From the NCBI GenBank assembly GCA_963663765.2, contig CAXXUA010000004.1, forward strand, positions 864,001 to 928,000: 64,000 nt of DNA. Reading direction: 5' to 3'. The translations under genes were made by a program, and so were the position numbers. This document shows positions 16,316 to 17,878 of the stretch, piece after piece. The notes below the pieces were generated by a model that made no database searches, was not told where the DNA came from, and saw only the letters and a list, made by a program, of their open reading frames with translations. The DNA is from Candidatus Poribacteria bacterium (lineage in GTDB: Bacteria; Poribacteria; WGA-4E; WGA-3G). The first letter of the stretch is position 1; each line of letters starts with the position of its first letter.

Positions 16316-17878
16316 TTACAACGAATCTAATGTTTCTTCCGTTTCAGTTTGCAGGACAGAAATTCGCGCAAGAAATGCATTAATGCTTCCCTTCTTGCAA
16401 AACCAATTACCTGTTGCCCCTAACTTAAACCGTTGTCCACGGGCAAACTGGTGGCGAATTTGTCCTGTGTCACCGGGCGGAATATCCCACGCTGAAGCGA
16501 GAGCATCATCTGGATACCCTTCAGTGGGCAGTTCAACATCAGCGTCAAATAGATCAAAAGAACCTTCTGCCTCACCCCCACCCACCTGTATATCAATAAT
16601 GAGCGTGCCACCTTGTTCATAAGACGTAGCGTCAATTTCAGTAGGTGTGTAATCCTGATAACCGTCTCCCGGACCACGAAAAACGTTCAAAACCTCCATT
16701 GATTGTTCACGCAAGTTCAAGTCCAATTTTGACACCAATTTCACTCTATTTTCGCTGGCAACGTTGGTGTTCATAACTTTGCCTTTCGCAACGTTTGCTA
16801 ACTGTGTTAAATATCTTTGTGCCGGATTGCGGCTCGGTAGTTTGTTTTCTGGCTGGTGCAAAATTAACTCTGCTTGGGGATTCAGCACCTGAATATCCAC
16901 TGCACCGACGTAATTTTCTTTGAGTGTTTTAGCAAAAACTCTGACCTTTTCACCCTCTGAATCCTCAATCCATGCTGACAAATCGCGAAAGAGCACACAA
17001 GTATTGACAAAATTCTCGTTCAGCACTTTGATGAGTTCCGAATTTGAGAGCGGACCCGCTCTCAAGTTTTTACCGTTCGCTCAGCAGGATTCATCGTCCA
17101 ACGGTCCCCAACTGATGACCGCATGCATCGGAAGCTGCGTCGCAGTTGCTTTTTCAACTGCCTCCTCAAGCGGTAGCCAATCAATTTCAGCGAACTTGTA
17201 GAACTTCAATTCCAATCTTTTGCGTGTCTCTTCGGATGTGACTGAACCGTCCCAATCAATTTCGTCCGGTGCTTTAGTTGAGGTGGCATGGAGTTTCATA
17301 CGCGGCACGAAAACCATGTCAGCATACCCAAAGTCATTGATATCCACATTGCTATTGCGCGGTGGTAGCGCGAGTGAAAAGTCACAAACGATACCTGTTT
17401 TTAGGTTGATGAGCAAACACCCAGCAAATTGTGATGGAATAAAGCGAGCGACATCCATATCATCATCGTTACGGCGTTTCGATTCCGGTTTGGGACGGGT
17501 CGCCAAAGTAAACTCTGCATGAATTCGGAACGTAATGTCTGCGTAGTCCGGCGAAAGTGCACGTAAACAGGCGAAAGCCCCTTCCTGTCCGTTGCCCAAT
17601 TTCCCTGTAGCACCCGGGTGAAATTGTGAAAGAAACGGAATAACTCTGTCCAGATCAAGCTCCCAAACATCGCCTACCGTCACATTTGACGTTGGAAGAA
17701 AGGCGTTGAAAGCCTCTACTTTATACTCTCTGGTAGGTTCGTTTGGTGCCAGATCAAAGAGTTCCATGTTTTCTGGTGAGTCTTGGTGTAGGTCGTAGGT
17801 TGCATCGGCAATTGGGTCCCAATGTGCATAGATTTGTAAAGTTGCTGTATTTTTCAAGACACTGTTAAGGTCTACCAT
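16316..17878 (-). CDS. Selenoprotein N (SELENON)-like protein, about 520 aa, with selenocysteine at UGA 17083..17081 (codon 266)
   Basis: The two track ORFs are in frame, separated by TGA plus 5 sense codons. Reads WGPLDDESC-U-ANGKNLR versus human SelN WGALDDQSC-U-GSGRTLR (from memory); FRIHAEF motif; hairpin downstream. Confidence 0.9.
17044..17065 (-). promoter_or_regulatory. Putative bacterial SECIS element
   Basis: UUGAGAGCG-GGUC-CGCUCUCAA perfect stem starting 15 nt after the UGA; the loop starts with G. Confidence 0.8.

Follow-up and report, generated by a model that had tools for sequence, protein, structure and literature searches.

Bacteria insert selenocysteine (Sec) at in-frame UGA codons that are followed, within the coding sequence (CDS), by a hairpin called the bacterial Sec insertion sequence (bSECIS), and this mechanism is textbook knowledge. 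Here, we consider such a UGA and a hairpin 15 nt downstream of it in a 64-kb stretch of DNA (64,000 nt, hereafter the window) from a Candidatus Poribacteria bacterium, a sponge symbiont. The gene in question resembles that of animal selenoprotein N (SelN, gene SELENON). The hairpin is very probably a bSECIS in the CDS of a SelN-like thioredoxin-fold protein and directs Sec insertion. This reading is based on the UGA, the spacing, conservation at the RNA level, the continued reading frame, the GGUC apex of the hairpin, and a cysteine (Cys) at the corresponding site in homologues.

In E. coli K-12 fdhF (NC_000913.3), the recoded region reads TGA CAC GGC CCA TCG GTT GCA GGT CTG CAC C..., and RNAfold places the apex at GCA-GGUC-UGC. 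Both the fdhF element and the Poribacteria hairpin follow directly on the 3′ side of an in-frame UGA in the CDS; both are simple stem-loops whose apical loop is small, and the apical tetranucleotide GGUC is identical. The two elements differ in register: the first loop G is found at position +22 in fdhF and at +28 in Poribacteria (U of UGA = +1), 6 nt further, which by the same count corresponds to UGA-to-loop gaps of 18 and 24 nt. The bSECISearch model spans UGA-to-apical-loop distances of 16–37 nt, and the 24-nt gap falls inside this range.

Selenoprotein families regarded as eukaryotic have been found in bacteria before. Bacterial Sec forms with bacterial SECIS elements are described for the SelW-like, GPx and deiodinase-like families, which were once thought to be eukaryotic (Zhang, Fomenko and Gladyshev, 2005; PMC1088965). 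The Poribacteria gene is similar in that an animal-first family is encountered as a bacterial Sec protein with a bacterial-type SECIS in the CDS and not in the 3′ untranslated region (3′-UTR), but the consulted part of that study does not name SelN as one of these families. In animals, the SelN mRNA carries a coding-region stem-loop just 3′ of the UGA, called the Sec redefinition element (SRE), and according to the excerpts consulted (PMC6844570 among the sources) Sec insertion is influenced by its stem, its loop and its spacer.

The in-frame UGA and its downstream hairpin

The features of the site are as follows.

17878–16316, minus strand: putative SelN-like selenoprotein gene of 520 codons plus TAA stop, with TGA at codon 266; two open reading frames (ORFs) joined, homologues span the site
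17083–17081, minus strand: in-frame TGA, predicted codon of Sec266, in the context DDESC-U-ANGK
17080–17066, minus strand: 15-nt spacer GCGAACGGTAAAAAC, coding A-N-G-K-N; length invariant and gap-free in 80 aligned rows
17065–17044, minus strand: 9-bp hairpin of the window copy, DNA TTGAGAGCG-GGTC-CGCTCTCAA, RNA UUGAGAGCG-GGUC-CGCUCUCAA
17063–17046, minus strand: conserved core of the candidate SECIS, 7-bp stem GAGRGCG / CGCUCUC plus loop (RNAalifold, alignment columns 51–57 and 62–68)
17056–17053, minus strand: apical loop GGUC, alignment columns 58–61, invariant in 80/80 rows

Within 17130–16980, the minus strand reads TGG GGA CCG TTG GAC GAT GAA TCC TGC TGA GCG AAC GGT AAA AAC TTG AGA GCG GGT CCG CTC TCA AAT. 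Two ORFs in the same frame, 17878–17081 (265 codons) and 17065–16316 (249 codons), meet here, and reading the TGA as U yields a single protein of 520 residues, ...WGPLDDESC-U-ANGKNLRAGPLS... The window hairpin consists of nine Watson–Crick pairs and a 4-nt loop with G first, and the UGA is separated by 15 nt from this stem and by 17 nt from the conserved core. An earlier note on this DNA had described a UGA, 15 nt and a hairpin with a GGUC loop, and the coordinates, frame and pairing are borne out on the minus strand. The bacterial SECIS anatomy that it recognized is likewise present, as the hairpin is located in the CDS, its loop is small and starts with G, and the in-frame UGA that it immediately follows is conserved. 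Its description of the 9-bp stem as perfect holds for the window copy, while across homologues only the seven inner base pairs are conserved.

Perfect 9-bp hairpins with loops of 3–8 nt occur 15 times in the window, at about 10 distinct places (Markov expectation: mean 1.9 in 100 first-order simulations). They are rare in the window, and one placed 15 nt past a given in-frame TGA is therefore unlikely to arise by chance. A scan of the window for in-frame TGA codons flanked on both sides by 40 or more open codons and accompanied by a G-loop hairpin yields three matches, among which only the SelN-like site lies in a real long frame (269 codons upstream, 254 downstream).

Related loci were collected with a 9-row alignment and the pattern [FW]GxLDDESC. 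The search matched 165 stretches, of which 148 were confirmed as relatives; we retained the best 80, all from Poribacteria metagenome-assembled genomes, and these fall into three paralogue groups with 72–90%, 54–63% and 44–47% identity to the N-terminal half of the window protein. TGA is the codon after ..DDESC in 78 of the 80 loci, with the conserved frame continuing. The hairpin is found at an unchanged distance in 79, including a single locus (L041) that has TGG in place of TGA and an intact hairpin; the codon may have changed recently, or the TGG may be an error of sequencing. The remaining locus, L046, reads TGT followed by a broken frame, lacks the hairpin and is probably a decayed copy. 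The earlier note had proposed to look for the hairpin among TGA-bearing homologues, and with seven pairs and GGUC conserved in 79/80 loci it is indeed kept.

Alternatively, the TGA might be a true stop, with a downstream ORF starting from TTG at 17065 and a hairpin that regulates translation or ends the first transcript. The ORF listing does start the downstream ORF at this TTG, the first codon of the hairpin, and the two halves are deposited separately, as N-terminal ..ESC pieces and C-terminal MRAGPLS pieces (P0122, P0147). Yet a single shared frame and a fixed 15-nt spacer are found in all 78 TGA loci. Furthermore, the spacer codons (ANGK or GSGK) are conserved at the protein level and align with CGSGK of Cys-containing homologues and with SGRTLRE of the animal protein, and in the structural model a division at the TGA would sever the thioredoxin-like domain just ahead of its first helix. 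A terminator was rejected, as there is no T-run 3′ of the hairpin and the conserved frame runs on. We consider two separate genes highly unlikely.

Conservation and constraint of the hairpin

The window and 79 loci (L046 was dropped) form 80 gap-free rows, and base pairs were counted on the 77 distinct rows. RNAalifold folds them into a consensus of a 7-bp stem with a GGUC loop at a fixed distance from the UGA. Of the 539 cells of the seven inner pairs, 527 hold standard pairs. For the 9-pair structure, 86.6% of cells are paired, with the two outer U-A pairs unpaired in 25/77 and 56/77 rows, and sliding the 3′ arm by 1–3 columns reduces this value to 27–61%. At pair 51-68, 65 rows have G-C, 5 have C-G and 7 are unpaired; at pair 56-63, C-G (69 rows) is joined by U-G (4), U-A (1) and unpaired bases (3); and pair 54-65 is G-U in 42 and A-U in 33 rows. 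Covariation, which the earlier note had also named as a check, lends the structure some support, with changes on both sides at two stem pairs. The covariation score (0.136 versus 0.113 ± 0.005 in shuffled alignments, 0/500 as high) and the number of double-change cells (6 versus 1.8, 1/500 as high) exceed the shuffles, although kinship among the sequences inflates covariation scores, whereas two of five pair-count measures show no excess.

Two further pairings involve the UGA. RNAalifold adds a 4-bp helix UGCU/GGYA that includes the U of the UGA (alignment columns 28–31/40–43, window 17086–17083/17074–17071); it shows no double changes, has one pair broken in 9/80 rows and is probably not meaningful. 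In the loci of paralogue group 3 (L057, L060–L080; L057:4814–4861), UGAGG can pair with CCUCA just 3′ of the hairpin, forming a lower helix that encloses the UGA.

Since the hairpin-encoded peptide L-R-A-G-P-L-S is itself conserved, we compared synonymous codon use codon by codon in the same 80 rows. Within stem and loop, Ala +8 is encoded by GCG in 73/73 cases, Gly +9 by GGT in 80/80, Pro +10 by CCG in 77/80, Leu +11 by CTC in 77/79 and Leu +6 by TTG in 65/69, while Arg +7 is either AGG or AGA, both of which can pair with U. Flanking four- and sixfold degenerate positions use 4–6 codons with Gini values of 0.5–0.74, for example Gly −8 (GGT 30, GGG 21, GGC 17, GGA 12), Leu −6 (six codons) and Val +16, +25 and +29, Thr +27, Leu +30 and Arg +32 (Gini 0.63–0.73). 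The third base of Ser +12, just beyond the conserved stem, is free (TCC 49, TCG 20, TCA 4, TCT 2). Moreover, the swap at pair 51-68 (TTC...TGC in L027, L031, L032, L033 and L041) costs two residues, L to F and S to C. Because synonymous sites are frozen only in stem and loop, and pair-keeping changes alter two amino acids, the comparison of these rows shows the hairpin to be under selection at the RNA level.

A fourth, tandem class of paralogues carries a different hairpin at the same place. A tblastn search of the loci with the database relatives P0004 and P0006 identified seven extra tandem paralogue sites, in L020, L023, L030, L034 (two) and L056 (two), which read GPL[AT]DESC-TGA-GSGK.LRA[VG].LS with TGA in 7/7. 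All seven form a 6-bp hairpin GAGRGC-AG[G/U]U-GYYYUY that starts in the same column as in the main class, has the loop AGUU or AGGU with G as its second base, and is paired in 42/42 cells including one double change of G-C to A-U. Compared to the main class, the 5′ arm is the same, the 3′ arm is 2 nt closer and the peptide is different (RAVVLS or RAGALS). Hence, the structure is kept while sequence and register differ. Poribacteria genomes contain several SelN-like paralogues, some of them in tandem (L056:2372–8594, L034:829–3485 and the flanks of L020, L023 and L030), with about four copies in 8.8 kb in L056. TGA is present in every flank copy whose Sec region falls inside the fetched stretch.

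The inverted repeat could in principle lack any RNA function and be a by-product of the peptide LRAGPLS combined with codon preference. The conservation of this peptide would fit, as it recurs in some Cys homologues (P0158, P0224) and part of the conservation therefore resides at the protein level. The in-context folding stability given below is likewise ordinary. The synonymous freeze, on the other hand, is confined to stem and loop, and the same amino acids elsewhere in the rows use 3–6 codons. Paired double changes alter the peptide yet preserve the pair, and the tandem class forms its hairpin at this place with another peptide. A mere by-product is, in our view, extremely unlikely.

Several results nevertheless weigh against a bSECIS, including the recurrence of the peptide in Cys homologues just mentioned. 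The DNA evidence comes from one phylum, and the remaining 68 confirmed relatives lie outside the analyzed set. The two pair-count measures without excess are pairs with changes on both sides (2 versus 1.4 shuffled, 224/500 as high) and further pair types (9 versus 8.0, 159/500); the five C-G rows at pair 51-68 probably represent one event; and no covariation measure of the seven-row tandem class exceeds the shuffles (221/500). The 5′ arm of fdhF contains a bulged U, whereas the Poribacteria stem is a perfect 7–9 bp without bulge; in fdhF, SelB contacts this bulged U as well as the loop bases G23 and U24. Rfam yields 0 matches at gathering score in the whole window and, at E up to 10 on the hairpin, just two chance miRNA models (E = 2.7 and 9.2). 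The bare 22-nt hairpin folds at −13.3 kcal/mol (z = −4.05, 0/200 shuffles as good), and z is −2.75 in a 76-nt context (1/200). Stability in context is unremarkable, with z = −1.82 for the 48 nt of the window (10/200), −0.03 for L027 and +0.32 for L056. As the known fdhF SECIS is equally unremarkable (z = −0.67), z-scores of single-sequence folding do not discriminate and stability is therefore no evidence.

Relationship of the protein to selenoprotein N

Read through the UGA, the protein comprises three regions.

17878–17174, minus strand: N-terminal beta-rich domain, residues 1–235, conserved across the family (homologue matches, AlphaFold model)
17170–16784, minus strand: predicted thioredoxin-like domain, residues ~237–365 (AlphaFold model, Foldseek)
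16729–16349, minus strand: predicted C-terminal beta-sandwich, residues ~384–510 (AlphaFold model, homologue coverage)

Searches of Pfam, NCBIfam and PDB sequences (PDB at E up to 1) return no match for the read-through protein. A word-indexed search finds 338 relatives, the named ones from Candidatus Poribacteria, and a HMMER search of 1.84 billion representatives finds 652 at E up to 0.001. Automated gene calling breaks such genes at the UGA: among the best 150 representatives at 50% identity, 74 terminate exactly at ..ESC and are thus cut at the stop. In uninterrupted homologues, a Cys aligns with the Sec site (P0132, P0156, P0158 and P0224, among the best 150). P0172 is also a Cys form (SCC), and its flank lies outside the motif used for the Cys search.

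One relative comes from an animal. P0268 (UniRef100_A0A4X2KGP4) is a 588-aa protein of the wombat, a marsupial, with an EF-hand; it matches query residues 205–345 with E = 8.1e-23 and reads ...WGALDDQSC--SGRTLREIVL... at the site. A 2026 review of SelN describes, in the part consulted, a protein of the endoplasmic reticulum with an EF-hand and a thioredoxin-like motif, whose SCUG contains Sec462, four residues ahead of Arg466. Because its length, its EF-hand and the sequence SC..SGRTLRE fit this description, the wombat protein is most likely the SELENON orthologue, with U-G skipped by the gene model. In the ESM Atlas, the cluster nearest to the Cys homologue P0132 is automatically named 'Selenoprotein N' (98% Eukaryota, score 0.93, 206/256 features), and the next clusters are bacterial, rich in Planctomycetota and composed of hypothetical proteins. 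The animal-type gene postulated by the earlier note is corroborated by both matches, and sequence similarity supports the gene product as a bacterial relative of the SelN core.

The homologous stretch WG.LDD.SC-U-..G+.LR...L...LN..F.NTW surrounds the site in both the animal and the bacterial proteins. SCUG is exact in paralogue group 3 and in the tandem class, whereas the window copy and paralogue groups 1–2 have SCUA. In contrast to animal SelN, no EF-hand is detected in the bacterial proteins, which also lack the N-terminal region where it resides in animals: Pfam gives no matches and no EF-hand for P0001, P0132, P0158 and P0006, and the window protein has no N-terminal extension. The window protein is hence kin to the core of the SelN family and not to the animal architecture of membrane anchor and EF-hand.

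The AlphaFold model (41-row alignment, mean pLDDT 88, pTM 0.72) has a middle domain (~237–365) of the order beta-alpha-beta-alpha-beta-beta-alpha, with C265-U266 after strand 251–256 and just ahead of the first helix. Foldseek assigns this domain with probability 1.00 to DsbH-type thioredoxin domains (7tkv_B, 2ju5, 3ira), ERp19 (1sen) and AGR2 (9i3u_B). DsbH, ERp19 (TXNDC12) and AGR2 are the best confident structural matches, with target-normalised TM-scores of 0.54–0.63 (1sen, 2ju5, 3ira, 9i3u_B). They share only 13–19% sequence identity with the Poribacteria protein, carry CxxC or CxxS in place of C-U, and lack its extra N- and C-terminal beta domains. Sec is thus predicted, from the model, to be carried in a thioredoxin-like domain. 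The C-terminal beta-sandwich is, judging from the aligned homologues, a Poribacteria addition that is absent from the ~390-aa bacterial homologues and from the animal protein. Many other Poribacteria proteins contain it as well, singly or in repeats, and many of the word-indexed matches cover just 22–28% of the query at ~60% identity. Two relatives have extracytoplasmic function (ECF)-type Sigma70_r2 and r4 domains at their N-terminal side: P0172 (668 aa), where they precede the Cys-form SelN-like domain, and P0058 (588 aa), whose match to the query has ~24% coverage.

Downstream of the SelN-like gene are genes for PSCyt/PSD1 (13190–16102) and DUF1501 (11646–13139) proteins. Upstream, a second perfect 9-bp hairpin, GGTGCGGTT-4-nt loop-AACCGCACC, is located at 17976–17997, in the gap between a WD40 gene (stop 18107) and the SelN-like gene (start 17878), with no T-run after it on the minus strand. 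The window also contains a 3145-aa ORF (35753–45190, minus strand) and further ORFs at 30738–31955, 29381–30634 and 18107–22361 (all minus strand); TIR-domain, FRG+TPR and two large WD40 proteins are encoded. Such eukaryote-like repeat proteins are typical of sponge symbionts.

Proposed Sec insertion and a possible relation to the animal SRE

Modeled on the E. coli system, SelB-GTP-Sec-tRNA(Sec) would bind the 7-bp hairpin at its GGUC apex when the ribosome approaches the UGA. The fixed distance (in the window, the stem is 15 nt and the loop 24 nt away) would set the tRNA at the UGA in the A-site, and Sec would be inserted at residue 266 to give an S-C-U-A/G redox motif. The ribosome would then melt the hairpin while translating L-R-A-G-P-L-S. 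SelB binding and Sec as the inserted residue are proposed by analogy.

The genetic code of the window argues for a site-specific event. Stops were checked in 29 ORFs, 28 of them with Pfam support, and comprise 15 TAA, 10 TAG and 4 TGA. A general reassignment of TGA (code 4 or 25) was rejected on the basis of these 4/29, and since TGA otherwise serves as a normal stop in the window, any recoding must be specific to the site. Among the full-length database proteins, P0004 (JGI) has W and P0006 (a cluster that includes NCBI MCE2416380.1) has G at the Sec position. TGG and GGA are each one base from TGA, W and G are also the meanings of TGA under codes 4 and 25, and the closest relatives of both proteins among the fetched loci have TGA in all cases. 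A scan of the 80 loci for in-frame TGA plus hairpin gave 16 candidates outside the SelN-like genes, all of which look like noise frames or ordinary stops, and no further selenoprotein was found in this way.

The Sec machinery adds to the points that count against a bSECIS. The window contains no selA, selB or selD among 30 ORFs scanned and no tRNA, including tRNA-Sec, and a tRNA scan of 60 of the 80 loci likewise found none. This would also fit a hairpin that stimulates UGA read-through by itself, in the manner of an SRE alone, with a near-cognate tRNA for Trp, Cys or Arg and without SelB or Sec. The animal SelN SRE promotes stop codon read-through even without a SECIS, as stated in the consulted parts of PMC4561486 and PMC6844570, and both the TGG of L041 with its intact hairpin and the W of P0004 would be compatible with such decoding. 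In contrast, the site aligns with Cys in uninterrupted homologues and, like that of SelN, forms an SCU motif with a neighbouring Cys; the SelB-dependent fdhF element shares the invariant GGUC apex; and UGA is kept in 78/80 loci with no drift to sense codons. Sec use has moreover been reported for Poribacteria and sponge symbionts: as far as the excerpts consulted go, group 4 hydrogenases that contain Sec are present in nine phyla, Poribacteria being one of them (PMC13582414), and most sponge-symbiont bins have the COGs of SelA and SelB together (PMC5649159). The literature thus lends indirect support to Sec use in Poribacteria. We regard read-through without Sec as very unlikely and a bSECIS as the preferred reading.

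The earlier note had also raised a possible relation between the hairpin and the animal SRE. Both are coding-region stem-loops just 3′ of the UGA. In animal SELENON, the SRE is a helper to a SECIS in the 3′-UTR, while in Poribacteria the hairpin would be the sole signal. As an SRE is defined for eukaryotes and as a helper to the 3′-UTR SECIS, the hairpin of this bacterial gene with its bSECIS features falls outside the definition. The 2026 SelN review lists, in the part consulted, the variants c.1384T>C (Sec462Arg) and c.1397G>A (Arg466Gln). The bacterial hairpin covers codons that align with the animal L-R-E-.-V-L. We take c.1397G>A to be the SRE mutation of Maiti et al. 2009; if it is, the SRE covers +14 and overlaps the bacterial hairpin at least in position. 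For SPS genes, descent of the SRE from a bSECIS was proposed by Mariotti et al. 2015 (PMC4561486, consulted in part). Applied to SelN, eukaryotes would have retained an ancestral bSECIS and reduced it to a helper after the 3′-UTR SECIS took over. That the Poribacteria hairpin and the SELENON SRE are the same element by descent is a tentative idea and, on present evidence, rather unlikely.

Full-text literature searches, with subscription literature and supplements (e.g., S9 of PMC4807772) outside their scope, retrieved no description of a bacterial SelN relative, and the consulted parts of the 2026 SelN review and of a 2026 review of prokaryotic selenoproteomes mention none. According to a study of algae, SELENON almost always takes the Sec form. 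The bacterial SelN-like family is broad, mostly in the Sec form, and has several paralogues per genome in sponge symbionts. SelN would be the second gene family after SPS in which a bSECIS and a eukaryotic SRE are found at the same spot by the same Sec codon, which makes the hypothesis that the SRE descends from the bSECIS directly testable. If descent holds true, SelN would be the best test case, its SRE being the functionally characterised one, and SelN would be an old bacterial redox family and not an animal invention. In SEPN1-related myopathies the mutated selenoprotein is SelN, whose biochemistry is so far little understood; the bacterial relatives offer tractable material for biochemical and structural work.

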